Source: a virus
Taxonomy: Duplodnaviria > Caudoviricetes
Virus record (IMG/VR): IMGVR_UViG_3300020042_004234
Coordinates: 1 to 42,945 of that record
Length of the DNA: 42,945 bases
Direction: 5' to 3' (one strand)
Every line of letters begins with the position of its first letter. Within the stretch, counting starts at the first letter, position 1. Below the pieces are notes generated by a model. That model made no database searches and had not been told where the DNA came from. It saw only the letters and a list, made by a program, of their open reading frames with translations. Of the stretch, positions 2 to 24,774 are shown one piece after another. The translations under genes and the position numbers were made by a program.

Positions 2-151
2 ATTCATATTAGCCATTTGTTCTGCACCAGTCGTACCTTTAGAAGTCAATCCCTTGGCAGAAATAGCCTTGCCTTTCATGGTATGGGGAGGAGCATAGAC
101 TTTAGCGTCTCCAACTTCTTTGCCCATTACTTTCTTTGAATAGTTAGCCAT
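2..151 (-). CDS. small Lys-rich phage protein, runs off left edge (MANYSKKVMGKEVGDAKVYAPPHTMKG...)
   Basis: ATG at 151 overlaps the TAA of the upstream ORF; frame open to the window edge; translated by hand. Confidence 0.7.
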   Translation of the reverse strand, partial: MANYSKKVMGKEVGDAKVYAPPHTMKGKAISAKGLTSKGTTGAEQMANMN

Positions 152-360
152 TATCGACCTCTCCCTGCGCTTTTACGCATCATGCCTTGGTTCTTGACTT
201 TGGCTAAATTACGCCCCATTTTCTTCATGTCCATTTGGCTTTTGCCACCCATCTTTGGCTTTGCCTTCATGCCCAAGACTGTAGGACCACTATCGCCTAA
301 ATTTGTACCTTCGGTCTTACCTTTTTTGGCTACTCCGTCTGCTGTTGATGTATAACCCAT
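151..360 (-). CDS. small basic Lys/Gly/Met-rich protein (putative virion core peptide)
   Basis: AGGAG RBS; contains ADGVAKKGKT motif shared with neighbouring ORFs. Confidence 0.75.
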   Translation of the reverse strand: MGYTSTADGVAKKGKTEGTNLGDSGPTVLGMKAKPKMGGKSQMDMKKMGRNLAKVKNQGMMRKSAGRGR

Positions 361-369
361 TTTAAACTC

Positions 370-759
370 CTAAGTTGTTGATACTGTTATTGTACCAAGT
401 TGCCCTATTGCCACCAAATAGTTTGGGGTTAAAACGGTATCAAACCCGCTTGCCCCGCCCACTGGTGCCCACCCCCACTGAAATACCCTACTACCGCCAG
501 ACACATTCCCTAAAACATCTGTCCCTGAGACCAGATAACTAACGTCAGGTCTTGGTTCCCGAACTGCCTGCGGGTCATTAACTGGATATAAACCCAGCGA
601 TAACTGTGGCTGATCTGGGTCCCAACAGCTAGGACACACCTTAATATTATAAAGCTTGGTCTTAACTACTTGTTTCTGTAATTCCTTAAGTTTATACCTC
701 TGACCACATCGGTCACACTCCGCAATCGAATTCTTGCCAGATGCATATTTAGATGGCAT
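370..759 (-). CDS. phage protein with CxxC...CxxC zinc-ribbon-like N-terminus
   Basis: CDRCG and CPSC motifs; coupled to upstream gene; late operon. Confidence 0.75.
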   Translation of the reverse strand: MPSKYASGKNSIAECDRCGQRYKLKELQKQVVKTKLYNIKVCPSCWDPDQPQLSLGLYPVNDPQAVREPRPDVSYLVSGTDVLGNVSGGSRVFQWGWAPVGGASGFDTVLTPNYLVAIGQLGTITVSTT

Positions 760-1700
760 TAATAAAACAACTGACGGGGTACAAACCTATCAGAAGCCTT
801 TTCTCTATCTTCTTGAGAAGCTAATAGCCATTGTTGTTCGTAGTCGGCTTTAAGACCTAGAACTCTGTCTGGCGTTACTTCTGGTTTCTTCATTGCAATA
901 TAGTATGCCAATCCAGCCACCATACAGGGAATAAAGCGGAATGGGATGTCTTGAATGTTTACACCGTTTCCAGCATCTTGCATGCGGCGCATGCGCCAGT
1001 AAACAAACGTATAGTCTCCACCAGCATTAGGGGCAGGCCAAACATTAATACATGGTAAGTTTTGTATTTTTACAGAAGCACCAGTGGCGTGGGTAGCTGC
1101 GGTAGTTCCGTTTTGTCCTCTTACGCAGTTTATTAGTTGGTTGTCGGTTACGTTGGTATACCCGATAGTTTCCGAATCAATTAAAACAAACCCAGTTGAA
1201 GGTAAGTTTGCTGTAGATCCTACGTAAATTGTAGTGTCTGTAGTAGATACGCTTGGTGTGTTTCCGCTTACCGCTACCGTTGTAGACGCCGCTGAGTTTG
1301 TGTTTGCAGTCTGGCGGTTAATCCAAACTTGAATTGGTCGGCCGTTTGCTAGCTTATTAGGTATGGTTGAGTAAGTAGACTCAGAGATACGGGAAATATT
1401 AATATCTGACTGTGTGCTAGCAGTGCCGTTGTTTTGGCGAATGACGTGGTCTAAAAGGTCGATTGTGTCTTCTGGTATGGGATATACTGCCTGCCCTGTA
1501 ACCATTGGAATTACGCCTTCTTCAATAGTCCATAAGTTAATACCACGGTTTGCCCACTCAATAGTAAGCAAGTTTAAAGACCGGCGGGCCGTACGAAAGT
1601 CATAGCCAGAACGCAACTGTAACCCAGAGCGCTCGTATGCTTCCTCTATTAGATCGTTAAGATCTAAATTAAATGTAGTAAGGCCGGTTGTATTTGCCAT
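759..1700 (-). CDS. putative head-tail adaptor/connector protein with inserted beta-rich domain
   Basis: N-terminal DLIEEAYERSG..SLNLLTIEWANRG and C-terminal P.RF.PC.VAGLAYY resemble podovirus adaptor helices; position in structural operon. Confidence 0.55.
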   Translation of the reverse strand: MANTTGLTTFNLDLNDLIEEAYERSGLQLRSGYDFRTARRSLNLLTIEWANRGINLWTIEEGVIPMVTGQAVYPIPEDTIDLLDHVIRQNNGTASTQSDINISRISESTYSTIPNKLANGRPIQVWINRQTANTNSAASTTVAVSGNTPSVSTTDTTIYVGSTANLPSTGFVLIDSETIGYTNVTDNQLINCVRGQNGTTAATHATGASVKIQNLPCINVWPAPNAGGDYTFVYWRMRRMQDAGNGVNIQDIPFRFIPCMVAGLAYYIAMKKPEVTPDRVLGLKADYEQQWLLASQEDREKASDRFVPRQLFY

Positions 1701-1702
1701 AG

Positions 1703-1906
1703 TTATTTATTCTTAAGCACTTCAATTTCTCTGTGAAGCTTTTCTATCAGTTCGTCTCGTTCGTCTAGTTTTTTCATAAGACTTACACTAGTTTCAGCCC
1801 ACATCGACATATCTTTAATTCGTTCTTTATGGTCATCAAGCATCATTTGATATAAACGCTCAGACGCCTCTACTTGTAGTTGAATAAAGTCTTTTGTATC
1901 AGCCAC
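1703..1906 (-). CDS. hypothetical coiled-coil protein
   Basis: 67 aa ORF tightly packed in operon; heptad pattern. Confidence 0.6.
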   Translation of the reverse strand: MADTKDFIQLQVEASERLYQMMLDDHKERIKDMSMWAETSVSLMKKLDERDELIEKLHREIEVLKNK

Positions 1907-1909
1907 TAT

Positions 1910-2257
1910 TTACACCTTTCGATATGGTTTTACTTTTGCTTTTACCTTTTTTGGCTGTGGCACGAACTGTTGTCCCTGTGCTTTTCCTTGCCGTTTTGCT
2001 CGTGTTGTTGCTGCGTACTCGCTTGGGCTTAACGCTTGTATTGCTTTCTTGGGCAGGTATCGTTCCCCCGTCTCGGATGACTTCTTCCCTGACTTGGTTG
2101 TCCACTCTTGGTCGCCCCAAGCTTTTAAGGAACGTTGTGATGCGGCTAAACCACCCCCTGCCATTTTCTTCTTTTTGCTGGCGCAATGGGCTTTCTCCGA
2201 GAACCCCTTTGGGCTGTCGCAGTTGATTGACTTTTTGCGTTTGTCTGACCATTTCAC
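1910..2257 (-). CDS. basic two-module protein (C-terminal part DUF5872-like) joined by MAGGG
   Basis: SQRSLKAWGDQEWTTKSG..GERYLPKKA motif recognised from phage proteins; ATGA coupling. Confidence 0.75.
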   Translation of the reverse strand: MKWSDKRKKSINCDSPKGFSEKAHCASKKKKMAGGGLAASQRSLKAWGDQEWTTKSGKKSSETGERYLPKKAIQALSPSEYAATTRAKRQGKAQGQQFVPQPKKVKAKVKPYRKV

Positions 2258-2784
2258 TTATAGCCCCCGCCTTTTTCTTTATAGCGTTTAGCTAAGAGTT
2301 GTGCCTTCCTAGCAGACCATTGACCCGCCGCCGTACCATGAGTAGCCGATGCTTTAATACTGTTAAATAAAGATTTGCGCATACCAGGTTTCGTATAGTT
2401 ACCAGCTTTATTAACACTAGAAGTTTTGCCGCCTTCTGCATACATATCCGCCGCAGTTAAAGAACCAGGTTTTTGTAAAAGTTTTTTTGCTATTGCCGAA
2501 CCAGCTCCGGCTTTGCCACCCTTACCAACCTTACCACCTTTGGCGTATGAAGCTGTTTTAGCAGCACTGGCAAAGTCACTCTTCTTAGGAGCACCTTTAG
2601 CGCCAGCACTACGCATCTTCTCGCCTGACCCAGAAGCTATACGTTTTTTCTTTGCAGCGATATTGGCATAAAGTCCACCACCCGCAAACATTTCCACATC
2701 TTCTGGATTGTCCTTACGCTTGATCGTTTTCTTTCCAGGCATCTTAGATGGGTTAATGTCCCCCATTCCACGGCTAGATCTCAT
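2254..2784 (-). CDS. basic multi-module protein with FAGGG/YAKGG/YAEGG linkers
   Basis: GLYANI..K.KRI..GSGEKMR and NYTKP.MRK..GQWSARKAQ modules; ATGA coupling. Confidence 0.8.
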   Translation of the reverse strand: MRSSRGMGDINPSKMPGKKTIKRKDNPEDVEMFAGGGLYANIAAKKKRIASGSGEKMRSAGAKGAPKKSDFASAAKTASYAKGGKVGKGGKAGAGSAIAKKLLQKPGSLTAADMYAEGGKTSSVNKAGNYTKPGMRKSLFNSIKASATHGTAAGQWSARKAQLLAKRYKEKGGGYK

Positions 2785-3251
2785 ATGCGTGTCTTTCCTC
2801 TAATGGCAATACCGTCGGCCCGTTTAGATGCTGAGGATACTTTCCCACCAGTTCTAAGATTATCAGGTGCATCGTCGCCCCTTTTGCTACCACCTGTATG
2901 TTTATCAAGAACTGCTTGAAAGCCTTTGGCGCCAGGTTTTTTAGAATCTTTATCTACTGCGTTAGGGTTCTGCTTAGCAGGTGTTGCTGGGATGGAAGGG
3001 GTGGGGTTAACTTTATTAAGTCCGCCTTTATTAAAGCCAGCTTGATTATAAGCCTCGCCCTCACGAGCGGCAGCAGGTACAGACTCCCGCATAGCTTTTC
3101 CAGCTCGGATCTGATCCCGAGCGTCTTTTGCCATAGTCGGCATAAGCCTTGAAAACATATCTTTCTCGGCTTCGATGCCTTCTACTGTTTTCTTGCGAGC
3201 GCCTTCAAGCTTTTTCGCTTCTTTTTCAGTAGGTTGTCTGTAGTTTGGCAT
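2781..3251 (-). CDS. basic low-complexity protein ending in ADGIAIRGKTRI
   Basis: operon-coupled ORF; shared C-terminal motif. Confidence 0.75.
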   Translation of the reverse strand: MPNYRQPTEKEAKKLEGARKKTVEGIEAEKDMFSRLMPTMAKDARDQIRAGKAMRESVPAAAREGEAYNQAGFNKGGLNKVNPTPSIPATPAKQNPNAVDKDSKKPGAKGFQAVLDKHTGGSKRGDDAPDNLRTGGKVSSASKRADGIAIRGKTRI

Positions 3252-3253
3252 AG

Positions 3254-3880
3254 TTATACCATCCGGCCTTTTGTCTTACCACGGACAGCGCAGCCATCAG
3301 CACGAGAAGAAGCTGAAGACTTAACTGAGCCGCCTTTTTTATAGGAAGTAATGCCGGCTTTCTCACGTAGATTTTTGGCAATTTTACCAAAACTAAATGT
3401 ACCTGGTTCTATTTTAGTCTTTGGCTTTTCTGTGCTTTCTTTTTTGTACGATCCGGGCATCTCTGGAGCTTTTTTAAGAGACTCTCTAAAATCTTGAACA
3501 GTAGTTCTTTTGGTTGGACCCATTTCAGATTTTGCCTCTGCCTTTGCAGCAGGTTTTGTTTCAGCCTTTGGAGCAGATTTTGTTTCAGCCTTTGCAGCAG
3601 GTTTTGTTTCAGCCTTTGGTGTAGGGGCTTCTGTGCTGTATAGGTCACCAGTCTCGGTATTGCGACGGATCTTAGAAGTAGCGCCAGTCTCATCACGTAG
3701 TTCACCGGTATCCGCTTTAGTATCTACCTTAGCAGCTTTTGGCGCATCAGGAGCAGCTTTACGCATACGAGCCAAAATGTATGGGTCTGTACGGTCTGCA
3801 CCACCTAAGAACTTTAATTGCTCAGGCGTAAAATTTTCATCCGCAGTTCCACCGTCTTGAAATTTTTTCATCTTTTTCAT
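3254..3880 (-). CDS. Lys/Ala/Pro-rich protein with internal repeats, ending in ADGCAVRGKTKGRMV
   Basis: operon-coupled ORF; shared C-terminal motif; PKAETKPAAKAETK repeats. Confidence 0.75.
   Translation of the reverse strand: MKKMKKFQDGGTADENFTPEQLKFLGGADRTDPYILARMRKAAPDAPKAAKVDTKADTGELRDETGATSKIRRNTETGDLYSTEAPTPKAETKPAAKAETKSAPKAETKPAAKAEAKSEMGPTKRTTVQDFRESLKKAPEMPGSYKKESTEKPKTKIEPGTFSFGKIAKNLREKAGITSYKKGGSVKSSASSRADGCAVRGKTKGRMV
3540..3619. repeat. in-frame tandem repeat, 24-bp unit, about 3.3 copies
   Basis: gcctttgcagcaggttttgtttca / gcctttggagcagattttgtttca / gcctttgcagcaggttttgtttca / gcctttgg. Confidence 0.9.
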
Positions 3881-3881
3881 A

Positions 3882-4301
3882 TTAGCAAGCCTTTCCGCCT
3901 CTATTCATTTTAATCATTTTGCCTTTGGTTTTACCCTTGGCCTCTACGCCACCACCTTTAGCCATTCCATGCAAACGCTTCTCATGGCCTTTCACAGCTT
4001 TAGCTGCTACCTTCTTCATCATAGGTTTGTCTTTAGCTATATCTGAGTGCGCTTTACCGCCCTCTTTCATAAAACCCATTTTATTGCGTACAGCTGTAGG
4101 TAACTTAGCCATACCTGGATTTTTCTTCATGTCTACTGGTTTCATTTTTTTCATGGTTCCACCTTCTTTAAATGTTTTGCCTTTGTCGGCAGTTAAAAAT
4201 TCCTTCCCAACAGAAGAAGGCACTCCTGATTTTTTGGCAAACTTTGGGTTATTAGCCACAGCCGCCATGAAATTATGTTGCTTCTTACTTACGCTTGGCA
4301 C
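3882..4301 (-). CDS. basic Lys/Met/Gly-rich protein with four xxGG linkers (likely GTG start, MPSVSKKQHNFM)
   Basis: FKEGG, MKEGG, MAKGG, MNRGG; GTG start at 4301 inferred (ORF track extends to 4334). Confidence 0.75.
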   Translation of the reverse strand: MPSVSKKQHNFMAAVANNPKFAKKSGVPSSVGKEFLTADKGKTFKEGGTMKKMKPVDMKKNPGMAKLPTAVRNKMGFMKEGGKAHSDIAKDKPMMKKVAAKAVKGHEKRLHGMAKGGGVEAKGKTKGKMIKMNRGGKAC

Positions 4302-4470
4302 GGCTAACCCATCCTTGAACTGTCTTGGTTTCATAGATACGAATTACTGTCCAAACAATTGTAAATAAAGCTGCTACTGCAGGCAATAAATCTGTTAGTG
4401 TACCTATCACTGTAACTAAAGATAGCCCATCTACAACGTGTTTAGTGCCTTCGGTTAAATGCTCTTTCAT
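4285..4470 (-). CDS. small membrane protein, putative holin
   Basis: hydrophobic core LSLVTVIGTLTDLLPAVAALFTIVWTVI with basic C-terminus; AAGGTG RBS. Confidence 0.5.
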   Translation of the reverse strand: MKEHLTEGTKHVVDGLSLVTVIGTLTDLLPAVAALFTIVWTVIRIYETKTVQGWVSRAKRK

Positions 4471-4766
4471 ATCACCTTCTTTTTAGCTTTGCTTTTAATT
4501 GCTCCGCCTTCTTTGCAGTTCCAAGCCCGTAAAGACTTATTGATGCGTGAATCTGGGTCGTTAGCGGTTTTAGCGCTGGTTAGTTTCTTTTTCATACCTG
4601 ACATCCTTGCACAGAACGATTTTTTTCTTGAACCGCCTTCTGGTTGTGGTCGTTTTAATCCAGGTTTACCAGGATTGGCTGCGTTATACGAAGCTCTACC
4701 CTTGGCGTTTAAACCGCCTTCAGGGTTTTTGCCCTCTTTGCGTTGCCACGCAGGAGTCTTAGCCAT
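4467..4766 (-). CDS. conserved basic phage protein (DUF6321-like) with C-terminal CKEGG extension
   Basis: AWQRKEGKNPEGGLN.KGRASY..RKKSFCARM..DP.SR..SLRAWNC motif. Confidence 0.75.
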   Translation of the reverse strand: MAKTPAWQRKEGKNPEGGLNAKGRASYNAANPGKPGLKRPQPEGGSRKKSFCARMSGMKKKLTSAKTANDPDSRINKSLRAWNCKEGGAIKSKAKKKVI

Positions 4767-6013: not shown

Positions 6014-6160
6014 ATGAGTTCTTGGCTAATTATTCTTACTGGGCTAATTTACATATACATAGCTGCGGAACAATGCTTTAAAGGAAACATAGGCATGGCA
6101 ATTTGTTATGCGGGGTATGCTTTTGGAAACGTTGGTCTATATATAATGGCTACTAAATGA
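6014..6160 (+). CDS. 48-aa membrane protein (MSSWLIILTGLIYIYIAAEQ...)
   Basis: AAGGA RBS; two hydrophobic segments; hand-translated; ATGA coupling to next ORF. Confidence 0.7.
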   Translation: MSSWLIILTGLIYIYIAAEQCFKGNIGMAICYAGYAFGNVGLYIMATK

Positions 6161-6312
6161 TTGAGTCTTTAGTTAAACCCACCCCACTAGATAACGATGT
6201 TGCTGTTATAAAAATACTGCAGTTGATGGGTCAGTTAAGCCCTAAAGATATTGGGCACGTTTTAGCCATAGCAAATCAAGTATATAAAGTTGTTGCCAAA
6301 GAAACCGCATGA
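6157..6312 (+). CDS. 51-aa hypothetical protein
   Basis: ATGA overlaps at both ends; hand-translated. Confidence 0.6.
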   Translation: MIESLVKPTPLDNDVAVIKILQLMGQLSPKDIGHVLAIANQVYKVVAKETA

Positions 6313-6440
6313 GTTTTACGATATACCAAGCAAACGGTATGAAGGTTATTCAATGGTTTAGTACGATTGATAGCCTGATTCAAAGTATGATTAAAAACCC
6401 TAAAGATAGGTACCACAGAAATGACGACAATCGTTGGTGA
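6309..6440 (+). CDS. 43-aa hypothetical protein
   Basis: ATGA coupling; hand-translated. Confidence 0.5.
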   Translation: MSFTIYQANGMKVIQWFSTIDSLIQSMIKNPKDRYHRNDDNRW

Positions 6441-6852
6441 CTGGGGCAAGAAAATTCTTGTAGCGGATAGTCAGTTTACTGACACCGATTCGGGCATTAA
6501 ATATTTTGAAGACAAGATATTTCCGATAGAAGGTGGGTGGATGGGCATAGCAGGTAACTACTGTGATGCCGAAAAGGTTTTAGACTACCTAAGCAAAAAG
6601 AACAAAACAAAACCTAAACTTAAATCCAACAGTTCTTTTATCAAGCTAACTAAAGACGGGCTGTTTTCCTGCGGGGACGATTTAGAGTGGGAACGGGTGC
6701 GAACTTTTATGGCTATTGGCTCTGGGGCTATGGCGGCTGAAGTCTGTATGCGTATGGGTTTAACGGCAGAAGAGGCCGTTAAGTGGGCTTGTAACGTAGA
6801 CATTAATAGTAGCGAGCCAGTCAAAACTTATAAGCTAGACGATGCCCTATAA
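6421..6852 (+). CDS. Ntn-hydrolase, proteasome beta-subunit/HslV-like threonine peptidase
   Basis: N-terminal M-T-T-I, ADSQ, conserved K (DKIF), GIAG, AIGSG, late A...D..S. Confidence 0.8.
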   Translation: MTTIVGDWGKKILVADSQFTDTDSGIKYFEDKIFPIEGGWMGIAGNYCDAEKVLDYLSKKNKTKPKLKSNSSFIKLTKDGLFSCGDDLEWERVRTFMAIGSGAMAAEVCMRMGLTAEEAVKWACNVDINSSEPVKTYKLDDAL

Positions 6853-7195
6853 AGACCCAAAAGTTAAAAAGGCGTATAACAAAATTCAAAGCCGTAAGCA
6901 TTACGAGGCAAACCGAAAAGCGCTAATACAAAAAGCAGCCGATAAAAAGAAAATATTTAAAACAGAGTGGAAAAAATATAAAGCTACTCTAGCCTGTACC
7001 AAATGCGGGTTTGCCCATTCAGCAGCATTAGACTTTCACCATGAAGACCCAACAAAAAAAGAAGCAAACATCCATCGTTTGTTGTCAAATGGGCAATACG
7101 TCAAACTACAAAAAGAATTAAAAAAGTGTATCGTATTGTGTGCAAACTGCCATCGAATACACCATTGGCAAGAAAAGAAAAACCCCGCTTTATGA
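6842..7195 (+). CDS. HNH endonuclease with Zn-binding cysteines
   Basis: CTKCG..LDFHH.DP..KCIVLCANCHRIHH. Confidence 0.85.
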   Translation: MPYKDPKVKKAYNKIQSRKHYEANRKALIQKAADKKKIFKTEWKKYKATLACTKCGFAHSAALDFHHEDPTKKEANIHRLLSNGQYVKLQKELKKCIVLCANCHRIHHWQEKKNPAL

Positions 7196-7223: not shown

Positions 7224-8138
7224 TTAAGCGCCGGGTGAACCAAACATTCCGAGTGGATCAGACCAACCAAACGAATAACGCTCACGAGACTTGTAACGTA
7301 CGTTACCAGTATCAAAGTCGCCGTCCATGTTGTTAGCCAAAGGCATACGCTCAAAGTGCTTCATGCCGTTAGGTACGTCAGTTGTCAAGAACCAAGCATT
7401 TGTGTCGGTCAAGTAGTGGTTAATTGCGTAACCTTCTGGGATTGAACCGTTGTTCTTCAATGCGTTGATGTCGTTGTCAGTTGTACCTACGCGCAAGTTA
7501 GTTTCCAACAAGCGGGTTGCAACGAATTGCAGTGCTGGTGGGATGATTAACTTACGTGGCATTGCGGCAATTAACAGACCACGCTCGTCAGTCCAAGCAG
7601 CGATTTGAATAACAGCGTTTTCCAACGAAGTTTCATTCAAGTCAGCGCCAGTTGTAGGACGGTTGCTGTTAGTGCCACCAGAAACTAAAGGATGCGCTGT
7701 TGAGAACAGTGGAACGCCATCGCCGCCGTAGTACTGGGCAGAGTTGGTGAAGCCGTTGTTCAATACAGAAGCAGCTTTAACTTGCTTGGTGTATGCCATT
7801 GCACGAGCTAATGCTTTGGTATAACGAGCAGACAGTGAGTCATACAAGTTATCTTCGATTGCTTCTTCAGTAACTGAGAAGCCCAAAGCAATTGTTTCGT
7901 GGTTGTAACGTGCTGTAAATGCCTCTTGTGCATTGTCATAAGCGATGGCAGAACCTTCGTTTTTGACTGGTGCAGCAGAGAAGCCGGACAGCTTGGTTTC
8001 TTCTTCAAAACTACGTTCTGATTTCTCAGTTTCGTAGATCTCTTTGTGCTCTTCGCCGTAACGCTTGTACTCTAAACCGAACAATGCGTTCAAACCGGGG
8101 AGCAACTCTTTCAGTAGTTGTGCGCGTGAAATAGCCAT
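7224..8138 (-). CDS. major capsid protein (HK97 fold, Mu gpT-like family)
   Basis: MAISRAQLLKELLPGLNALFG start; ARYTKALAR.M; DFDTGNVRYK.RERYSFGWSDP; AGGAG RBS; followed by terminator. Confidence 0.9.
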   Translation of the reverse strand: MAISRAQLLKELLPGLNALFGLEYKRYGEEHKEIYETEKSERSFEEETKLSGFSAAPVKNEGSAIAYDNAQEAFTARYNHETIALGFSVTEEAIEDNLYDSLSARYTKALARAMAYTKQVKAASVLNNGFTNSAQYYGGDGVPLFSTAHPLVSGGTNSNRPTTGADLNETSLENAVIQIAAWTDERGLLIAAMPRKLIIPPALQFVATRLLETNLRVGTTDNDINALKNNGSIPEGYAINHYLTDTNAWFLTTDVPNGMKHFERMPLANNMDGDFDTGNVRYKSRERYSFGWSDPLGMFGSPGA

Positions 8139-8150
8139 AGTTTATGCTCC

Positions 8151-8756
8151 TTATACGCCAGTGGCGTTGTTGTACTGATGCATAGTCGCATTGATTTTGA
8201 CAATAACTTCAGGGAAGTTATCGGCGGCAGTTGCGGTGTCCCGAACTACATCAATGATACGAATAGGCAAAGTGTTGGTTGTGGCAGTGGCAGCCGTAAC
8301 AGCTACTTGGGAATTACCTGTCGTGGTGATACCTGCATTCTGTACCAACGTGGTGTTATTTCCAATGGCAGTAATGCCAACACCAGTAACAGTTGTTCCG
8401 CTAGAAACTACAGCAACCTGGAACAACGTATCAGGATCATCTGCAACCACAGCAAAAATTTTACTCCCCGAAGCGATTGACTGACTTGCTGGGTAGAACT
8501 GTTGTTGTTGAACTTGACCAGTTGAGGAATTGGTAAAACTAACACCTAAAAATACACCGCAAGGCGTAGCTGTAGTTGTGCCAGTATCTTTTTCAATCGT
8601 TCCATCAGAAATACGTTTTACTAAATCGCCATAAAAAATGCTAGTAGCATAGCCACTTGCAATTTCCATTTGACGAGTTGCTCCCGCAAAGACTTGACCA
8701 CCAATCAAATTGACTGGTTTTAGTCCGTACGGTTTATCTACGGTTGGGTAAGCCAT
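8151..8756 (-). CDS. putative capsid cement/minor head protein
   Basis: PYGLKPV..IFYGD.V..GVFLG..V.DDP..LF; immediately upstream of capsid gene. Confidence 0.6.
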   Translation of the reverse strand: MAYPTVDKPYGLKPVNLIGGQVFAGATRQMEIASGYATSIFYGDLVKRISDGTIEKDTGTTTATPCGVFLGVSFTNSSTGQVQQQQFYPASQSIASGSKIFAVVADDPDTLFQVAVVSSGTTVTGVGITAIGNNTTLVQNAGITTTGNSQVAVTAATATTNTLPIRIIDVVRDTATAADNFPEVIVKINATMHQYNNATGV

Positions 8757-8778
8757 ATTAAACTCCTAGTTAAATTAA

Positions 8779-9231
8779 TTATTTGATTCCGTTACCAAAC
8801 CCACCGCCTTTAGTTGTTGTGCTCTTGCGATCACTAAACAGGGGCATGCGGGCATCACTATTACGTAGAAAGCTGTTGTCTACAGAGTCCATTTGATTAC
8901 GAGCTTTTTGGTCGTAATAGGTATCTCTAGCTTCAGCCATCTCTCTTGGTTTCTTACATAAAAGCAAGCCACCAATTTCAACATTTCCATCCTTGTTTGC
9001 TTGAATTTGCAATTCAGGATGGTCCACTGCCTTACATGGCACCCAGTGGTCACGGAACTTTTGAGACACGTTAGTGTCGTTCGGTTGTCCAGCGATCGCT
9101 GTTGCTACCCAGTGAAATACATAATCTGGGTCTGGTGTTGGATCAGGCAATGAGCTCGGTGGTTTGTAAACATAACGAGTTTCGGTTTTTTCGCGGGTTT
9201 CTAAATCCCGGGGTGTGCGTTTATTAGTCAT
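8779..9231 (-). CDS. conserved head-module hypothetical protein
   Basis: GGLLLCK.P motif; between scaffold and capsid genes. Confidence 0.7.
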   Translation of the reverse strand: MTNKRTPRDLETREKTETRYVYKPPSSLPDPTPDPDYVFHWVATAIAGQPNDTNVSQKFRDHWVPCKAVDHPELQIQANKDGNVEIGGLLLCKKPREMAEARDTYYDQKARNQMDSVDNSFLRNSDARMPLFSDRKSTTTKGGGFGNGIK

Positions 9232-9233
9232 TT

Positions 9234-10211
9234 TTAAATCTCCAGTTTAAGAACTTCTTGTGCATATTGTTTGTGGGATAAGCCAAATTTATCTGCCAAC
9301 CTTTGTTGGGTTGTAGTTAGTTTGACTACTCTTTTTGCTCCGGTAGAGCGGGAAGAAGAGGCCACTACAGTTGCGGGTTTCTTAACTGGATCAGCCTTTC
9401 TGTCAGCTGACTCAGAAATACCTAATAACTCAGGGAACACTTGTTTTAAGCGTCCATCAACACGAGAAAAATAATCATCAGAGCGGGGGTCGATTCCCGT
9501 AGCCACTAGTTTTTGGTGCAGCCCTAGTGCAAAAGCTGTCATTTCTTCGTACCCCGGAGACCCAAACCACTGGTTTTTTGCTTGCCAGCGCAAGGTTTTA
9601 TCGTCGAGTCTCGGTGCTTCTTGGGACGATGGTTGTATTTGTACACCAGAATTGTCGTTTTGTAAAGGGGTAGGCTTGAAATTTTTTGCAGACTCTAATT
9701 TCATCTTAGCGTCTGTCAAGTTTTCTTGTGCCGCGAGCATAGCGTCAGAATCGTAAGATTCTTGTGCTTCTTTATACCTGCGGCGTGCCATCTCCATTTC
9801 CGCTTCAGCCTTAGCCTGTAAGGTTTCTGCGTAGGTAACTTCACCATTTTTTACATATTCTTTGAGCCGCTGGTTCTCTTCCAAAATAGAACGAGCCATA
9901 CGTTCAAGTTCGTCTTTTTCACGCGAAATTTCTTCTTTGGCGCGTCTTTCATCATGCCGTGCGTGTGTAAGTTTTTTTATTTTAAGCTGAACAGTTTTAG
10001 AATATTCATCAAGTTCTTCGTCTGAAGGGTCTTCAACTTCATAACCAAGGGGTCTTGCATCACGATCTTTTTCAGGAGTGTCATCTTCGATTTGGATATC
10101 AACGTCACCTTCTGCGTCAATATCTATATCAAAGTCGTCTTCGGGTTTACCCTTAGTTTCTGACTGTTCTTCTTCAATCTCATGCGGGAATTTGTAGTCG
10201 TTATCTGCCAT
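9234..10211 (-). CDS. putative capsid scaffolding protein
   Basis: acidic N-terminus, long coiled coil, C-terminal helix pair (LT..QQ.LADKFGLS..QYA); position. Confidence 0.7.
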   Translation of the reverse strand: MADNDYKFPHEIEEEQSETKGKPEDDFDIDIDAEGDVDIQIEDDTPEKDRDARPLGYEVEDPSDEELDEYSKTVQLKIKKLTHARHDERRAKEEISREKDELERMARSILEENQRLKEYVKNGEVTYAETLQAKAEAEMEMARRRYKEAQESYDSDAMLAAQENLTDAKMKLESAKNFKPTPLQNDNSGVQIQPSSQEAPRLDDKTLRWQAKNQWFGSPGYEEMTAFALGLHQKLVATGIDPRSDDYFSRVDGRLKQVFPELLGISESADRKADPVKKPATVVASSSRSTGAKRVVKLTTTQQRLADKFGLSHKQYAQEVLKLEI

Positions 10212-10222
10212 GTGTATCTCCT

Positions 10223-10651
10223 TTATACGCGGGTAATGCCGCGTGGGTCTTCAACAGTTGCTTCAACCTGATCATCATTAATCAAGCGAAACTCTTTTCC
10301 GTGAATTTTTAGACGGGTTCCTGTATACGGGCGGGTAATAACGAAGTCGCCTTCTTTACACCATGCACCTTCTGGGAATTTTTCCGCATCATAGGCGCTA
10401 GGCCCCAGTTTTATAACAAACAGCACTGGTGAGGTCAATTCCTCAATTTCTTTGGTTTTATCTGCCTTAACAATCCCACTATCAAATGCGTCGTCAGGGT
10501 CGATTAATGCACAGAGCAAACGCCAACCTTTAGGGTCGGGTAGCGCCTTTGCCTTATCTTCTGCTGCTTCGTACTCTTGATCCACTTCTGGGGCTTTAAC
10601 GCCCGGCGGCAGGACTAATTCCGTTTCTGGTAACGCGATGGTTTCACTCAT
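10223..10651 (-). CDS. groES: GroES-like co-chaperonin
   Basis: P.GWRLL, SGI mobile loop, VIKLG, WCKEGDFV..YTGT..GKEFRLINDD.V.A. Confidence 0.85.
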   Translation of the reverse strand: MSETIALPETELVLPPGVKAPEVDQEYEAAEDKAKALPDPKGWRLLCALIDPDDAFDSGIVKADKTKEIEELTSPVLFVIKLGPSAYDAEKFPEGAWCKEGDFVITRPYTGTRLKIHGKEFRLINDDQVEATVEDPRGITRV

Positions 10652-10850
10652 CGTTGTCTTTCTCTATATTTTCAGCGAGGTCAATTAAATGGCGCTCTGC
10701 ATAGGCTAGACCTCGAATCACCCCGCAAAGTTCTTTGTACTGCTCAAAGGACGCGCACTGACCATTTGCCAAATCGTCAGTAAAGTTGTTCATATCTGCA
10801 CGAAATTTATCGCGTAATACCTGTAATACATTCATCGTTGATACATCCAT
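10644..10850 (-). CDS. small helical hypothetical protein
   Basis: FEQYKELCGVIRGL motif; between portal and GroES. Confidence 0.7.
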   Translation of the reverse strand: MDVSTMNVLQVLRDKFRADMNNFTDDLANGQCASFEQYKELCGVIRGLAYAERHLIDLAENIEKDNDE

Positions 10851-10853
10851 TTA

Positions 10854-13304
10854 TTACTCTCCTTTTTGTTTTTTGTACATTTGAGCCCGTGATTTAGCAA
10901 TGTCTACACCAATCTTGGTGCCTTCAAGCTGTTCTTTTATCTGCATTTCTCTGGTTTTTACCTTGTTTTGCTCGGTAATTTTAACCATGTCCATCTCCAT
11001 TTTGGACTCAAGTTCTTGTTTCTTAAGGTTAAGTTCATCAACCTTAGCGGCGCCATCAATCTGCATCTTCTGCTTTTTAAGCTCCAGCTCGCCTTGTTTA
11101 ATCTGCAATTCTTGCATCTGCATCTGTAATACAGGGTCTTGGGCGTTTTGCTGGGCTTGCTGCTGTGCAGCCATAGCTTTGGACTCTGCAAGCACTTGTG
11201 GTGCTGCTTCTGCCATAAGGCGGCTGATTTCTTTTTCCAACTCTGGTGGCAATTCGTCTTCTGGGTTCGGTAGTGCTACACCCAACGCTAGCTCGATCTT
11301 GTTTCTGTAGGCATATCCAACGTGCTCGGCAATGTGCGCCTGCATAGACCCCATGATTGCCTGAGCCTGTGGGTTCTGTCCAATGAGTTGCATAACGATT
11401 GGGTCCGTCATGGCAGACTGGTGAACCTTGATATGCGCTTCGTGATCTTGATACGAGAACGCCTTGAGTGGTTTGCCCCGCAGTGCGTTCTGGTTTTCCG
11501 TTACAGGATCTTTTGGCTTCTCGTCATCTTCCAACGGCACGAGTTTGCTAGCGTGCTTGATACCCAACACATCTAGCATCTGACGGTGCAGGAACGGCAA
11601 GTCATAAATCTGCGGAGCCATCTGCGCCATCTGGATAACGGCTTGGTACTGGACAACTCGTTGAGAAAGAGTTGCTGCGTTGGGGTCGCTTACTGGAATT
11701 ACTTCAACGATGCTGTAGTCTTCGCGCTTGGCGCTTGGACGACCTTCTTCTGGCTCGTAGGTGTAGTCAGGATCGGTGTAGTCACGGATCAAACCAGCGA
11801 TAAGCTGCAACTCTTGCTTGAGAGCGTAGTGAACACGGGCTTGTACCGCACTCATTACCTTTAGGCTTCTTTCCAATATAGCCAGCGTAGTACCCACTGG
11901 CGCCTGATTAGACATGTCGCTAATCTTCATATCAGATGTTGCGGCAAAACGACGTGCTTCATCAATGATCTTATCCATCAAGCCAGACAGAACTACCGAC
12001 GGCTCTTTGTATGGCAACGGCAAGATGTTGTCTCTAATGCTGCCTGAACCTACATCTACGTCACGGAACTCACCCGGTGCGATCGGTGTGTCATCACCTT
12101 TTATACGCAAGCCACGGGCTTTGAGACCGCCGGGCAAGTTGGAGAGGGTTCCGGCGTCCACGAGCTGACGCATGATGCTAGTAGCAGACTTAGCGTAGCC
12201 ACCAATAAGATGGAACAAACCAAAACCGTACGAGCCATAGCCCGGAATGTATTGGTAATGTATAAAATGATGGCGCTTAAGTTTGAGGTCATCGTCTTCT
12301 CTCCAGTTGCGGCGAATAGCTAGAATTTCATTGGTACCACGAAGCATGGTTACTACGTAAGGCAACGCAATCCCGGTGGGCTCGTCGTCTTCGTCTTTAT
12401 CTTCATAGCCCTCGATGTCAAGGTCAACGTGTGATTCGTACAGTTCAAAGCGATCATCGTTTGATGCAGAAAAGCCAGTCTCTCTGTCTTTGCTTTCTTG
12501 AATATCACTAGTAAATTTATCTGGTTCACCTAGCTCAATGTCACGGTAAAAGCCAGCATTCATTAGCTTTAACAGCTCATTTTTAGTCTTGCGCATGCGG
12601 TGCGTGATGCGATGACACGTATTTATCTCACTAATCCCATACGGCAGCATAATGTCTTCGGCAGGTATAAATACCGATACTGGACGCCCAAGGCTGGGGT
12701 CGTAATACACTTTCTTAAACGCCGAACCAGCACTTGGCAGATTCCAGAGCATCTTCTCGTGCTCAGGTCTGTACTCAGGCATCTTCTCTGTTAACTGGTA
12801 GTTCATGTCGTCTTCAACACGAGTAGCCGCATCTTTCTTCTCTGGGGTATCCCGCCCAATGATTTGCGTACGTACAGGTCCTTTTGCTGGGAAAGTCTCC
12901 ATGATGGTATCTGACTGGAAACGTACTACCGCTTCTGTAATCATCGGGTGAAACACACCGCAAGCACCATCCCAAGGCTCAGTTCTTTCTTCAAACTTCA
13001 AACCCAAGAGCGTAATGCCCTCTTTGTACATTTTCTCCCAGTCAGAGCGAGAGCCAATGTCATTATCAATATCTTCTGAAAGATCACTTGCTAGCGATTG
13101 CAAAACGCCATCATCTAGAATATCGGCAAGGTTCTCATCAAAATTAGCGTCATCTTCGCCTTTTTCAATACTAAGAATCTCTTCACCGTCAAGGCTGAGT
13201 TTTACTGATTCCGGATCTTCGATCTCAATCTCAATGTCTGGCTCTTCGTTTTCCAAGCCTTCTAAACCCTGTGGGGCTGCGTATAAACTTTTTTCTATGC
13301 TCAT
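10854..13304 (-). CDS. portal protein (P22-like, long C-terminal Gln-rich coiled coil)
   Basis: 816 aa directly after terL; PWDGACGVFHP, GSAFKKVYYD, PG.G.YGFGL.H; helical tail. Confidence 0.85.
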   Translation of the reverse strand: MSIEKSLYAAPQGLEGLENEEPDIEIEIEDPESVKLSLDGEEILSIEKGEDDANFDENLADILDDGVLQSLASDLSEDIDNDIGSRSDWEKMYKEGITLLGLKFEERTEPWDGACGVFHPMITEAVVRFQSDTIMETFPAKGPVRTQIIGRDTPEKKDAATRVEDDMNYQLTEKMPEYRPEHEKMLWNLPSAGSAFKKVYYDPSLGRPVSVFIPAEDIMLPYGISEINTCHRITHRMRKTKNELLKLMNAGFYRDIELGEPDKFTSDIQESKDRETGFSASNDDRFELYESHVDLDIEGYEDKDEDDEPTGIALPYVVTMLRGTNEILAIRRNWREDDDLKLKRHHFIHYQYIPGYGSYGFGLFHLIGGYAKSATSIMRQLVDAGTLSNLPGGLKARGLRIKGDDTPIAPGEFRDVDVGSGSIRDNILPLPYKEPSVVLSGLMDKIIDEARRFAATSDMKISDMSNQAPVGTTLAILERSLKVMSAVQARVHYALKQELQLIAGLIRDYTDPDYTYEPEEGRPSAKREDYSIVEVIPVSDPNAATLSQRVVQYQAVIQMAQMAPQIYDLPFLHRQMLDVLGIKHASKLVPLEDDEKPKDPVTENQNALRGKPLKAFSYQDHEAHIKVHQSAMTDPIVMQLIGQNPQAQAIMGSMQAHIAEHVGYAYRNKIELALGVALPNPEDELPPELEKEISRLMAEAAPQVLAESKAMAAQQQAQQNAQDPVLQMQMQELQIKQGELELKKQKMQIDGAAKVDELNLKKQELESKMEMDMVKITEQNKVKTREMQIKEQLEGTKIGVDIAKSRAQMYKKQKGE

Positions 13305-13312
13305 TTTTGGTC

Positions 13313-14884
13313 CTAGTAATATGCCGCACGTCTGCGGTATTTGTAAGTTAAATCTTCTTGTTCATCAGTTTCAAGGCTAATAAAGCCCCCCTGCCTGTAA
13401 CGCAGTAGCGCCTGTGTGCAAGTATCCACGAAGTCATCGTGTTCGCCAACTGGGAAACTAGCAATTTCTTCAATTACTTCTCTTGCCCAACGTGTGTCTG
13501 GTGCCCATACTTTACCAGATGTAAACAGATCCGCTACAGCGTTTAAACGAACCATTTTGTCGTTGCCGCGTGAGGGTGAAAATTCCTGCACCGGAATACC
13601 GATGAGGCGAAGTTCTTGAATTAACGGGGCACCCGCCGCCTTTTTCTCCACAATAAACGCATCTGGTGTCCACTCTTTGTAATGCTTAAGGGCTATCTGT
13701 TTGAGTTCCGGGAAGGTCATGCGGTCTTTAAATGCGTCAAGCAGAATGATGTTGGGGCTGCGTTTATCCTCGTTATCGTAGAAAACACCCCATGTTGTGC
13801 ACGCAGAATAGTCACTGTTGTTTTTTGTTTCAAACGCCGTATCCCAAGACTGAATCAAATACTCACACTTGGGCGGATCGTCTGCTTCCCATATTTTCCA
13901 ATCCTTTCGCCCTACCAGTGCGCTCATGTCACTAGTCGGATTCTGCATGTACTGGGCATTCCAGTACCGTGGGTCTATGGAATTCTGGGTGTTTTTTAAC
14001 GCTTCAAGGCTCCACTGCGCAGGCCAAAGCGATTTTTCATCATCTGTACCAGCGTTAACTATGGCGGGCAGTTCTACGATTTCCCAAGGTATGGTCTCTG
14101 GGTTTTTTATCTGATAGTCAATTAAACGCCCTGTTAAATCTAACAACGACCACCTAGTCATGATTACTATGATTGCACCGCCAGGCATTAAACGTTGCAA
14201 GGGACCCGTTTGAAACCAAGACCAAGCGTTATCAAACGCCAGCCTTGAGTTTGCTTTCATATCTTGTTCAGAATGTGGGTCGTCAATAACAAATAAATCT
14301 GCTCCGCGACCAGCCAAAGCCCCGCCAACACCAGCTGCGTAATACTGACCACCAGCACCAGTACTCCATTTCCCAGCCGCTTTCTGGTCGTCTGCGACGA
14401 CGGTATTTGGAAAGATTTCACGGTATTCCTCACTATCTATTAGGTTTCGCACCCGTCGTCCAAAGTCCTCAGACAAACTTGCCGTATGGGTACCCATGAT
14501 AATTTTCTTATGTGGGAAGTTACCTAAAAAATAAGCAGGAAATAAGTAAGAGCTGAACTCCGACTTACCCATACGAGGTGCAATGTTGATAATGACCCGC
14601 TTTTTCTTACCATCGACTACGTCTTGAAAGATTTTAGCTAAGCGTTTGTGGTGCGGGCCTACTTTAAACCCAGGATATATGCGTTTTGCAAACTCTATCG
14701 GGTTAGTTTTAGAGGTGTGTACCTCAAACCTGTGTTCTTTTTTCTCAAGATCGGCTAAAAATGCCAGTTTCTCGACCTTGTCCATGTCTTTTAGCGCTTT
14801 TTGCGCCGCCATTGCTTCTTCTGGGGTAAAAAAATCTAGATTCATGTATACGTTTTTGGGGTTTTTATGTACATCTATGTTCAT
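13313..14884 (-). CDS. terL: terminase large subunit
   Basis: Walker A APRMGKS, GRGADLFVIDDP, YMQNP, nuclease SWDTA, VEKKAAG, HDDFVD. Confidence 0.95.
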   Translation of the reverse strand: MNIDVHKNPKNVYMNLDFFTPEEAMAAQKALKDMDKVEKLAFLADLEKKEHRFEVHTSKTNPIEFAKRIYPGFKVGPHHKRLAKIFQDVVDGKKKRVIINIAPRMGKSEFSSYLFPAYFLGNFPHKKIIMGTHTASLSEDFGRRVRNLIDSEEYREIFPNTVVADDQKAAGKWSTGAGGQYYAAGVGGALAGRGADLFVIDDPHSEQDMKANSRLAFDNAWSWFQTGPLQRLMPGGAIIVIMTRWSLLDLTGRLIDYQIKNPETIPWEIVELPAIVNAGTDDEKSLWPAQWSLEALKNTQNSIDPRYWNAQYMQNPTSDMSALVGRKDWKIWEADDPPKCEYLIQSWDTAFETKNNSDYSACTTWGVFYDNEDKRSPNIILLDAFKDRMTFPELKQIALKHYKEWTPDAFIVEKKAAGAPLIQELRLIGIPVQEFSPSRGNDKMVRLNAVADLFTSGKVWAPDTRWAREVIEEIASFPVGEHDDFVDTCTQALLRYRQGGFISLETDEQEDLTYKYRRRAAYY

Positions 14885-22273: not shown

Positions 22274-23389
22274 ATGAAATTACTTAATTCGCTACAAGTA
22301 GCAAACGCTATCAAGATGGTTGGTCACAAGCGCACCATCATTGTTCAAGGTGAGAATGGTATCGGCAAGACTGGTATCTTCCACACCCTTGAGCGTGACC
22401 CACACTTTGCCAATCACGTTGCGGTCAAGCTCGACTGTACTCAGATGTCTGATGGTTCTGTGTGGATGCCTGACATTGATCGTGATGCAGGTGTATCTCG
22501 TGAGTTACCCAACGAGCGCTTCGGTGTAAGCAAAGCTAATCAGAAGGGTATCAATGGTGCTCGTCCATCGCTTGTGTTCCTTGACGAGTTGGCTAAGGCT
22601 AAGCAGTACATCAAGGACGTGCTTGCTCCGATTGTGTACGAGCGTGCTGTTGGTAACTACGAGATGGCTGAGGGTTCTGTCGTGTTCGCTGGTACTAACC
22701 TTGCGGTCGAGGGCTTGGGCGATTCGATACAGGCTCACTTGCGTAATCGTCTTGTGTTCTTGACCATGCGTAAGCCTACGCAACCCGAGTGGTATACATG
22801 GGGTGTCGACAACGGCATCGACCCTATTCTCTTAGCATGTACCAACGAGAATCCACAATGGTTCGATAGCTTCCTTGACTTCCAAGATGGCGGTAAGTAT
22901 GCAGGTCGTGATCAGTCTAAGGAGAATGACGTTATCTTCAATCCGTTGTTATCTCAGCAGGCGTACATCACACCACGCTCACTACACTCTGCGTCAGACA
23001 TTGTCAAAGAGCGTGAGTACATGGATACCGATACGTTGCAGGGTCTACTCGAGGGTACGATCGGTCGTGCTGGTGCTGAGGTATTGGGTGCGTTCATTCG
23101 CTTTGGTGATGAGACACCTGCGTTCAGTAAGATCGTGTCGTCCCCAAGCACTTGCCCTATCCCTACCAATCCTGTGGCGCAGATCATTACTGTGCTCAAG
23201 TGTGTCACGCAAACTTCCACTAGAGAAGAAGCCGAGGCATGCACCGAGTATGTGATGCGCAATCGTCGTGAGTTGCAGTCTATGTTCGCTAACAACATTG
23301 CCAACTCTACACGTGCGGCGTTGTTCGTCACAGTCAAGCCGTTCCAAGCATTGATGAATGACAACAAGATTTATTTCTCAACCAAGTAA
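22274..23389 (+). CDS. MoxR-like AAA+ ATPase
   Basis: Walker A GENGIGKT, Walker B LVFLDE, sensor AGTN, arginine finger LRNR, TPRS. Confidence 0.85.
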   Translation: MKLLNSLQVANAIKMVGHKRTIIVQGENGIGKTGIFHTLERDPHFANHVAVKLDCTQMSDGSVWMPDIDRDAGVSRELPNERFGVSKANQKGINGARPSLVFLDELAKAKQYIKDVLAPIVYERAVGNYEMAEGSVVFAGTNLAVEGLGDSIQAHLRNRLVFLTMRKPTQPEWYTWGVDNGIDPILLACTNENPQWFDSFLDFQDGGKYAGRDQSKENDVIFNPLLSQQAYITPRSLHSASDIVKEREYMDTDTLQGLLEGTIGRAGAEVLGAFIRFGDETPAFSKIVSSPSTCPIPTNPVAQIITVLKCVTQTSTREEAEACTEYVMRNRRELQSMFANNIANSTRAALFVTVKPFQALMNDNKIYFSTK

Positions 23390-23398
23390 GGGGGATGT

Positions 23399-23563
23399 AT
23401 GAAAAAGTGGTCAGGCTACGCCATTAGGAAAGAGTACTTCAAGGTTGAAGTAGAAGCCGACACGTGGGAAGAAGCACGAGAGAAGGCGTGGGACTCTGAA
23501 GTTACTGACGAACCAATTGATATTATTTGGGAAATTTACGATATAGAGGAGGTACTAGCATGA
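23399..23563 (+). CDS. 54-aa acidic protein (VEVEA.T.EEA.EKA pattern)
   Basis: GGGGG RBS; ATGA coupling; hand-translated. Confidence 0.6.
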   Translation: MKKWSGYAIRKEYFKVEVEADTWEEAREKAWDSEVTDEPIDIIWEIYDIEEVLA

Positions 23564-24774
23564 GCAAAACATGGGACAAACTAACCGCACCCGATCGGGT
23601 GATTGCAGTACACGTTGACTTCACCAACAACAAAGACTTCGCTGGTCTATCAGGCTATGCGTATGTCGGTGATGTCAAGTTCGAGGGCATCGGCACAGCA
23701 GGCACAGATGGTCGTGATGTATGGTATGACCCTGCGTTTGTCGGTGGGCTTAACCGCAAGCAGTTGCGCTATCTCGTTGCACACGAGTCGTTACACAAGG
23801 CGCTAATGCATTGCACTAACTACAAGGAATTATCCAAGAAGTATCCACAGCTATGCAACATGGCTATGGACTACGTAGTCAATGCAACCATCGAGGAGAT
23901 CGACCCCAACTTCACGTTTGTCGAGCGCATAGTAGATCCTGCACCACTCATTGACCCCAAGTATCAGGGCTGGTCTTTCATCGAGGTGTTGCAAGACTTG
24001 TTACGCAATCCTCCACCTCCACCACCCAAAGGTAAGGGCAACGGCGATGGTGATAAGGGTGGGCATGGCACACTCGACGAGCATATGTTCGGCGATGCAG
24101 TTGAGCTAGGCAGTAAGGAAGCCAACGAGCTAGCTCGTCAGATAGATGATGCTGGTCGTCAGGGTAAGATACTTGCCGACAAGATCGCAGGCAAAGGCTC
24201 TCGCAACAGCGCACTCGATCGTGCTACACAAAAGCGTGACACTAACTGGCGTGAGCACTTGCGTGAGTGGGTTACTGCACTATGTGAGGGTGATGAGTAC
24301 TCTCGCTTTGCACCACCCAACAAGCGACTATTACCGCTTGGCGTTATTATGCCGTCGCACTTTTCTGAGGCTACGGGTGAGCTAATCGTTGCGTGTGATA
24401 CATCAGGCTCTATGGGCGGTATCTACCCTACTGTGTTCGGAGAGATTGCCCGCATTGCGGAGAACGTACGACCTGACTCTGTGCGCATCATTTGGTGGGA
24501 CAGCGCTGTGTGTGGCGAGCAAGTGTTCAAGCCGCATGAGTTCGAGAGGATCGGTCATCAGCTAAAGCCAGTCGGGGGCGGTGGCACTAGCCCTGAGTGC
24601 GTTGTGCAATACATTCGTGACAAGAAATACCAACCCAAAGGTGTTGTGTGGTTAACCGATGGGTACTTAGATGGTAGCAATGCGTGTGTCGATGTGCCTG
24701 CAATATGGGGCGTAGTTAACAACGACCACTTCAAACCACCGCAAGGCAAAGCAGTTCGTATCTACTCAAACTAA
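23560..24774 (+). CDS. metallopeptidase-like plus VWA domain protein (DUF2201-type)
   Basis: TAGTDG, HESLH (HExxH), N.AMD..VN, MIDAS DTSGS, GGGGT, TDGY; GAGGAGGT RBS. Confidence 0.85.
   Translation: MSKTWDKLTAPDRVIAVHVDFTNNKDFAGLSGYAYVGDVKFEGIGTAGTDGRDVWYDPAFVGGLNRKQLRYLVAHESLHKALMHCTNYKELSKKYPQLCNMAMDYVVNATIEEIDPNFTFVERIVDPAPLIDPKYQGWSFIEVLQDLLRNPPPPPPKGKGNGDGDKGGHGTLDEHMFGDAVELGSKEANELARQIDDAGRQGKILADKIAGKGSRNSALDRATQKRDTNWREHLREWVTALCEGDEYSRFAPPNKRLLPLGVIMPSHFSEATGELIVACDTSGSMGGIYPTVFGEIARIAENVRPDSVRIIWWDSAVCGEQVFKPHEFERIGHQLKPVGGGGTSPECVVQYIRDKKYQPKGVVWLTDGYLDGSNACVDVPAIWGVVNNDHFKPPQGKAVRIYSN

Follow-up and report, generated by a model that had tools for sequence, protein, structure and literature searches.

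What is a hydrophobic residue, set at a fixed distance ahead of Gly-Gly, doing at the joints of a series of small, lysine-rich phage proteins? The question is raised by IMG/VR virus record IMGVR_UViG_3300020042_004234 (42,945 nucleotides, a whole virus contig, referred to here as the window), in which six late genes encode basic chains punctuated by the motif [MFY]xxGG or a close variant. The motif is under selection at the protein level and lies at fusion points; modules have been swapped repeatedly around it, and T4-like homologues make reciprocal use of Glu at the same place. Our favored answer, offered tentatively and from sequence, is that [MFY]xxGG is a processing site joining modules of head-internal basic proteins.

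The window is a genome fragment, one end of it inside the tail region and the other inside an LPD38 protein; the complete genome is probably 60-65 kb. Judged by its capsid (73% identity to Pag-Yong1/MinM2 and 64% to pelagiphage HTVC023P) and by a shared set of terminase, portal, GroES, scaffold and capsid genes, the window phage is of the HTVC023P type, a podovirus group (bioRxiv 10.1101/2019.12.14.876532). Nine late genes are common to all eight genomes compared. The stretch occurs in freshwater metagenomes, with identical pieces in contigs of two others; identical pieces in two metatranscriptome assemblies are not evidence of transcription. The motif cluster is part of the late operon, between the capsid gene and an SU10-type adaptor gene, and its six genes, which abut or overlap by a few bases, are these:

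4467..4766, minus strand: DUF6321 protein, 99 residues, net charge +20, with CKEGG at 4503-4517 followed by an 11-residue basic tail; the family is present in 8/8 genomes.
3882..4301, minus strand: basic protein of 139 residues with an N-terminal PHROG 16759 module and four motifs (4158-4172, 4056-4070, 3951-3965 and 3894-3908).
3254..3880, minus strand: low-complexity protein of 208 residues; motifs at 3848-3862 and 3329-3343, C-terminal ADG tag at 3257-3328.
2781..3251, minus strand: protein of 156 residues; motifs at 3021-3035 and 2844-2858, C-terminal ADG tag at 2784-2843.
2254..2784, minus strand: chain of 176 residues consisting of SRGMG leader, motif 2674-2688, GLYANI module (PHROG 16028), motif 2533-2547, spacer, motif 2428-2442 and NYTKP module (PHROG 17747).
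1910..2257, minus strand: chain of 115 residues consisting of a 31-residue basic module, MAGGG (2150-2164) and SQRSLK module (PHROG 14910).

All thirteen pentapeptides that an earlier note on this DNA had picked out between 1910 and 4766 are present, on the minus strand, in these six open reading frames (ORFs); within-protein shuffling (20,000 rounds) yields a mean of 1.3 and a maximum of 7. Of the 19 Gly-Gly runs, 13 have Phe, Tyr, Met, Leu or Cys three residues upstream, where the background rate is 0.12. Because that pattern was read off the same six proteins, it was fixed and retested out of sample, on 166 basic ORFs lying between capsid and adaptor genes in the 32 of 80 related loci that span both (HNH- and GIY-YIG-like ORFs were excluded by pattern): [FYM]xxGG occurs 188 times where 22.7 are expected and 1,000 shuffles reach at most 38, the 32 loci being relatives and not independent samples. 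Comparison with shuffled sequence, a check that the earlier note had suggested, thus places the motif far above chance both in the window and in its relatives. The consensus is basic-basic-[MFY]-[KA]-[KESR]-G-G, and the register is strict: moving the hydrophobic residue one position further away ([FYM]xxxGG) lowers the count from 189 in this comparison to 49 (23 expected for either).

The same shuffles bear on the model that the earlier note had chosen. Adenain, the adenovirus protease, and pS273R of African swine fever virus recognize (M/I/L)-x-G-G or (M/I/L)-x-G-x-G, and there too basic, probably DNA-associated precursors are punctuated by Gly-Gly. However, the hydrophobic residue of the window motif lies one position further upstream, and the virus is bacterial. 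(M/I/L)xGG is found at chance level (26 vs 26.2), as is (M/I/L)xGxG (22 vs 26.4). With its (M/I/L)xGG spacing no commoner than shuffling predicts, and with no clan-CE protease turning up in the scans, kinship with the adenovirus system is unsupported; what stands of the di-glycine maturation idea is a motif above chance, at boundaries, and at the gp21-type Glu position of a T4-like module.

Could the Gly-Gly be a mere by-product of Shine-Dalgarno sequences serving internal translation starts? A Met within two residues after 54 of 200 motifs would suit that explanation, but the codons refute it and leave it practically no credence: the first motif glycine is spelled GGC or GGT in 198/200 cases and GGA in 1 (GGA and GGG together make 2/200), whereas GGA or GGG serves for 399 of 1,627 other Gly codons. 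Ten different codon pairs spell the Gly-Gly, and Met, Phe or Tyr stands at the first motif position. Synonymous variation of the glycines, joined to the lack of Shine-Dalgarno spelling, indicates that selection acts on the peptide. The shunning of GGA and GGG at the first glycine is, in its own right, an avoidance of internal Shine-Dalgarno sequences after Lys codons.

The blocks between which the motif falls include real modules. Three that the earlier note had named as stand-alone small ORFs in other phages were recovered: PHROG 16028 corresponds to residues 37-78 and PHROG 17747 to residues 120-176 of ORF 2254-2784, and PHROG 14910 matches residues 37-114 of ORF 1910-2257, whose SQRSLK module is a separate 79-residue gene in HMO-2011. 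Each of these matches starts or stops at a motif, and the PHROG matches of the DUF6321 protein stop at residue 84, where CKEGG begins. The claim that the motif falls between blocks holds in part: it marks module boundaries, but several copies separate nothing (one, at 3894-3908, leaves three residues behind it, the last of them Cys; another stands at residue 7). The ORF that contains the former copy most likely starts at GTG 4301, a correction to its extent; two PHROG families labelled "virion structural protein" match its N-terminal module as well, with their own N-termini. Free genes for two modules lack the motif: 0/14 for SQxSLK and 0/5 for WIK. Fusions of the GLYANI module have Gly-Gly in 105/105 cases, a count given little weight because the module itself starts with Gly and the matches are 91-98% identical.

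DUF6321 provides the cleanest view of a joint. It is a core gene of the clade (8/8 genomes) and fused in many phages; 120 longer homologues reduce to 95 true C-terminal fusions when 8 without an anchor, 12 with the module first and 5 gene-call extensions are set aside. Gly-Gly occupies the position of the free gene's start Met in 95/95 of these (background 10%), behind 17 unrelated N-terminal families, and begins 6-12 residues before a conserved Trp (6-7 in 90). The first motif position is Met in 42, Gln in 25, Leu in 14, Tyr in 6 and another residue in 8. [ILVF]xE precedes the module in 0/95, i.e., none of these joints is of the L/I-X-E kind.

The L/I-X-E joint belongs to T4, whose head protease gp21 cuts after that sequence, and whose internal proteins carry short leaders that are at once targeting signals and cleavage substrates (PMC9026906); a related protease from a giant phage cleaves propeptides at several redundant sites (PMC10052503). 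T4-like cyanophages carry DUF6321 too, and there the joint is different: among 79 anchored starts from 80 loci (75 of the 80 have T4-like neighbors), Glu lies 1-5 residues before the module in 79/79 (61 distinct; background 30%), [ILVF]xE in 46 and Gly-Gly in 0. Cultured T4-like cyanophages have the Glu in 8/8. Over whole chains, [ILVF]xE is enriched (471 vs 268) and [FYM]xxGG depleted (5 vs 16.6); a second shared module, GLxxNI, stands behind Glu in 6/6 distinct T4-like contexts. Gp21 family S77 is found in 5/5 T4-like genomes and, by the same search, in 0/5 complete genomes of the window's clade. Protease-type Glu joints where gp21 is present, Gly-Gly joints where it is absent: this reciprocity is the strongest support for the idea that the Gly-Gly joints are cut.

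T4, not adenovirus, is accordingly the closer model for the Gly-Gly proteins. T4 internal and core proteins, like the cyanomyovirus T4-GC119 chains (Syn9 gp114, S-SM1 SSM1_115), put small basic modules on one chain, with short targeting-like leaders, a short site per joint and the joint in the same position; the DUF6321 and GLxxNI modules, strung on such chains, are common to T4-GC119 and the window clade. A targeting-type leader directly precedes a shared module in two T4-like homologues, P-TIM40 and P-SSM7 (the latter: PMC3037559 supplement), and the T4-GC119 family is marked there as having proteomic data (PMC3037559 supplement). The differences are equally clear. The window clade has Met/Phe/Tyr-x-x-Gly-Gly in place of L/I-X-E and no S77 protease; its scaffold and capsid are without the site; its members are podoviruses rather than myoviruses; its C-terminal ADG tag is absent from the T4-like loci examined; and the proteomic mark of virion presence belongs to the T4-like family, no virion proteome having been found for the window clade. 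The system is best read as a set of basic, head-internal polyproteins of the T4 type that are joined by another kind of signal.

Leader and tag are its portable ends. The SRGMG leader with its motif precedes at least four alternative modules among related loci. In a tree built from capsid and adaptor for 26 loci (of 33, seven lacked a gene call and were dropped), the module behind the leader changes 8 times, compared with 8.7 for shuffled labels; changes as frequent as that signify repeated swapping at the leader joint. The C-terminal tag (ADG-x-A-x-R-G-K-T, about 22 residues, behind a motif), which the earlier note had overlooked, ends 53 proteins in 34 loci, among them two of the six in the window. 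Gly-Gly lies within 20 residues upstream of the tag in 53/53, and the 52 tagged bodies that were compared fall into 38 unrelated families. Frequent swapping of this kind would also be expected if the motif were a passive flexible joint, read by no protein and offering only a short stretch of DNA homology for recombinational exchange of modules; contigs of relatives do have joints close to motif positions. Yet the peptide is kept while its codons vary freely, its spacing is fixed, and one would not expect a simple hinge to give way to a protease-type Glu site, all of which makes the passive joint improbable.

Where else in these genomes does the motif occur? The flanks of the cluster are laid out as follows ("scaffold-like" and "decoration-like", as well as "ejection-type" below, are labels that we assume from gene position and one PHROG match):

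2..151, minus strand: another basic ORF, truncated where the window ends; its visible part is free of the motif.
151..360, minus strand: basic protein of 69 residues with an ADG-like segment near its N-terminus; included in the cluster by the earlier note, it has no motif, but relatives at the same position carry one.
759..1700, minus strand: SU10-type head-tail adaptor, the downstream border of the cluster.
6421..6852, plus strand: HslV-family peptidase gene beside an HNH gene; context, outside the motif system.
7224..13304, minus strand: major capsid, decoration-like protein, conserved unknown (8779-9231), scaffold-like protein, GroES and portal; [FYM]xxGG in none.

Across five complete relatives (protein classes set by gene position and size, the cluster border being fixed at 5 kb for two genomes), the basic cluster has far more motifs than expected (21 vs 2.8), and ejection-type proteins, which had escaped the earlier note, are enriched too (38 vs 13.6). 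Other late proteins are mildly enriched (54 vs 33), partly through Gly-rich fibers; early proteins (15 vs 18.3) are not. One ejection-type protein (locus L095, 3811-4086, and four other complete relatives) has the motif immediately followed by a conserved C-terminal domain, about 90 residues long, with a weak likeness to tape-measure C-termini (PHROG E 0.0017; HH probability 43% with lambda gpH). The GEFV domain that stands behind the motif in ejection-type proteins matched 13,237 representatives; its predicted model has a predicted local distance difference test score (pLDDT) of 55, and comparison with the portal-bound domain of crAss001 gave one Atlas lead at 0.85 and none by profile comparison.

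If the motif is cut, what cuts it? The earlier note had observed that no canonical prohead protease is apparent, and this was borne out: besides its absence from the complete relatives, S77 has no match among the genes of the incomplete window. The co-occurring protease that might replace it did not emerge either, only sporadic peptidases, none of them conserved. The HslV-like gene at 6421-6852 was rejected as the cognate enzyme: it occurs in 1/32 full loci and 0/5 complete genomes. The conserved unknown at 8779-9231 (core, 8/8 genomes, between the scaffold and the decoration-like gene) was considered as a hidden protease and discarded, its product having no invariant His, Ser or Cys; the predicted model is a confident small alpha/beta one (mean pLDDT 77) with no Foldseek match at E <= 0.001 and only unnamed viral clusters in the ESM Atlas. 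Its highest VIA Z, 4.4, is to GNAT sheets, a score too low to assign a fold or to rule one out. Other peptidase matches in 116 proteins (M20/M28, M15, S74 and a DUF2201 metallopeptidase, whose gene is absent from 3/8 genomes) are sporadic and belong to early-region, lysis or tail-chaperone genes. Clan-CE proteases gave no Pfam match in the 116 proteins or in 25 window proteins, the direct search being of PF03290 only and without a positive control. A diverged enzyme could still stand beside these negative scans.

The processing that we propose would run as follows. Loading of the chains into the procapsid would fall to the SRGMG leader and the C-terminal ADG tag, acting in the manner of the T4 capsid-targeting sequence, and a single tag could load unrelated passengers. 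[MFY]xxGG would then serve as a protease-recognition site at which the lysine-rich chains are cut, after the Gly-Gly, into short basic peptides; a cut there would leave DUF6321 with an N-terminus nearly the same as that of the free gene or that left by a Glu cut. As no conserved phage protease was found, cutting would be the work of an unrecognized peptidase or of one supplied by the host, the part that OpdA plays for P22 gp7. The products, in most cases peptides of about 20-80 residues, might bind or neutralize the packaged DNA, or be ejected with it. A location in the head is suggested by gene position, by virion detection of the T4-like family, and by the presence of the motif on ejection-type proteins. 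Terminal cysteines are an observation apart: Cys is among the last three residues of 68/166 cluster proteins (4.6 expected), and of 43/141 when those with DUF6321 are removed, a hint of cross-linking or metal binding.

More distant phages offer partial parallels. P22 is likewise a podovirus without a head protease and has a Gly-Gly-containing site; in relatives of the window the ejection-type genes follow one another much as they do in P22, and the product of one has a short leader ahead of a stretch of Gly. Host OpdA removes a leader of 20 residues from P22 gp7, leaving an N-terminus of Lys-Gly-Gly (PMC8402733). However, OpdA cuts before the Lys-Gly-Gly, at one site in one protein; the gp7 sequence has no [FYML]xxGG, and nothing ties OpdA to the window clade. 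In T5 the site is of another sort: pb2 is cleaved behind Arg1127 (PMC10038345). The cargo protein C1 (gp45) of crAss001 and the tape measure gpH of lambda are virion proteins that are ejected and that have comparable motifs where domains begin or end: at 17, 260 and 559 in C1, and, in gpH, FATGG at 733-737 and YATGG at 778-782, flanking a small domain weakly like the clade's ejection-type one. GpH loses about 14 kDa, and a 2025 paper calls both cleavage site and enzyme unknown (PMC12617516). These phages belong to different orders, and homology of their motifs with that of the window is not established; one such motif is modelled intact in each structure.

What, then, weighs against cutting? 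1) Capsid, scaffold, portal and adaptor are the usual substrates of head proteases, and these 19 shell proteins of the five complete relatives show no enrichment (4 motifs vs 2.9). 2) No conserved protease was found in eight genomes of the clade. 3) The portal-bound part of crAss001 C1 is modelled from residue 425, which begins Ala-Phe-Gly-Gly (PMC10172136; PDB 7QOG), and this implies that no cut falls behind that Gly-Gly; its authors treat the chain as continuous, and "cleavage" is a word that their text never uses (PMC10172136). 4) The modelled 818-849 piece of gpH holds an intact MRDGG (PMC12617516), and a cut after 737 would give 80.1 + 12.2 kDa where about 78 + 14 is reported, which is near but not exact; crAss001 and lambda are distant, and may lie outside the motif system. 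5) Free DUF6321 has an internal QPEGG-type loop in 23/24 copies, and the case made from motif-free single modules is the weaker for it; that case stands for SQxSLK and WIK. 6) Gln takes the first motif position in the 25 DUF6321 fusions already mentioned. 7) [ILVF]xE is mildly raised in the window's clade as well (124 vs 89), and cutting at the cyanophage Glu sites is itself deduced rather than seen. 8) In 26 of 200 cases the C-terminus is at most five residues away from the motif, and 29/100 spacers are no longer than seven residues; such near-terminal copies and short spacers suit a multivalent tag at least as well.

The last point leads to the most serious competitor, to which we give a real though minor share of belief: the motif as an uncut docking tag that binds the procapsid interior, the scaffold or the portal, its copies adding avidity and loading both basic and ejection proteins. 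Tandem and near-terminal copies, enrichment in ejection-type but not in shell or early proteins, Gly-Gly modelled intact in C1 at the portal and in gpH, the failure to find a protease, and the ADG tag with its constant upstream Gly-Gly on so many unrelated bodies are all what a docking tag would produce. On the other hand, some cluster proteins dispense with the motif (the free SQxSLK and WIK genes), and the giant LPD38-type late proteins of the five complete relatives are not enriched (4 vs 4.9); the motif also sits exactly at fusion points, in every DUF6321 fusion, and is replaced there by a protease-type Glu site in gp21-bearing phages. One and the same motif could serve both docking and processing, as the T4 leader does.

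The processing-site reading can be stretched into a widespread di-glycine maturation code of tailed phages without a head protease of their own. In HTVC023P-type phages and others from aquatic habitats, gp21's job on head-internal basic proteins and on ejection proteins would be done by a host or unrecognized peptidase, which may also cut the lambda tape measure. That extension seems unlikely to us. Searches of the open literature (subscription papers lay outside them) listed no paper on the motif and none on "DUF6321"; the main text of a study of 80 HTVC023P-type genomes is without "protease" or "peptidase" (PMC9599517). The small basic late genes of these phages are unannotated, and on both leading readings the motif can be used to flag proteins that are probably head-internal or ejected. 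Should it be cut, head maturation in these phages relies on a protease that nobody has identified, and the reading supplies a precise candidate site in lambda gpH; should it be a tag, podovirus heads are loaded by means of a signal that can be moved from protein to protein.

A few minor observations can be appended. A conserved ORF overprinted across the SQRSLK module (117 codons, window 1899-2252) was considered and dismissed as not general, its alternative frames being open in 1 and 4 of 22 copies. Behind the capsid gene, an opposite-strand insert (6014-7195) holds the HslV-family peptidase and HNH genes; relatives often have HNH or GIY-YIG-like genes there. In the early region (22274-24774) an AAA-type ATPase gene adjoins the DUF2201 metallopeptidase/VWA gene, both being present in 5/8 genomes. 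The terminase large subunit (window 13313-14884) has [FY]R[QH]GG near its C-terminus, as do the relatives inspected, possibly for structural reasons.

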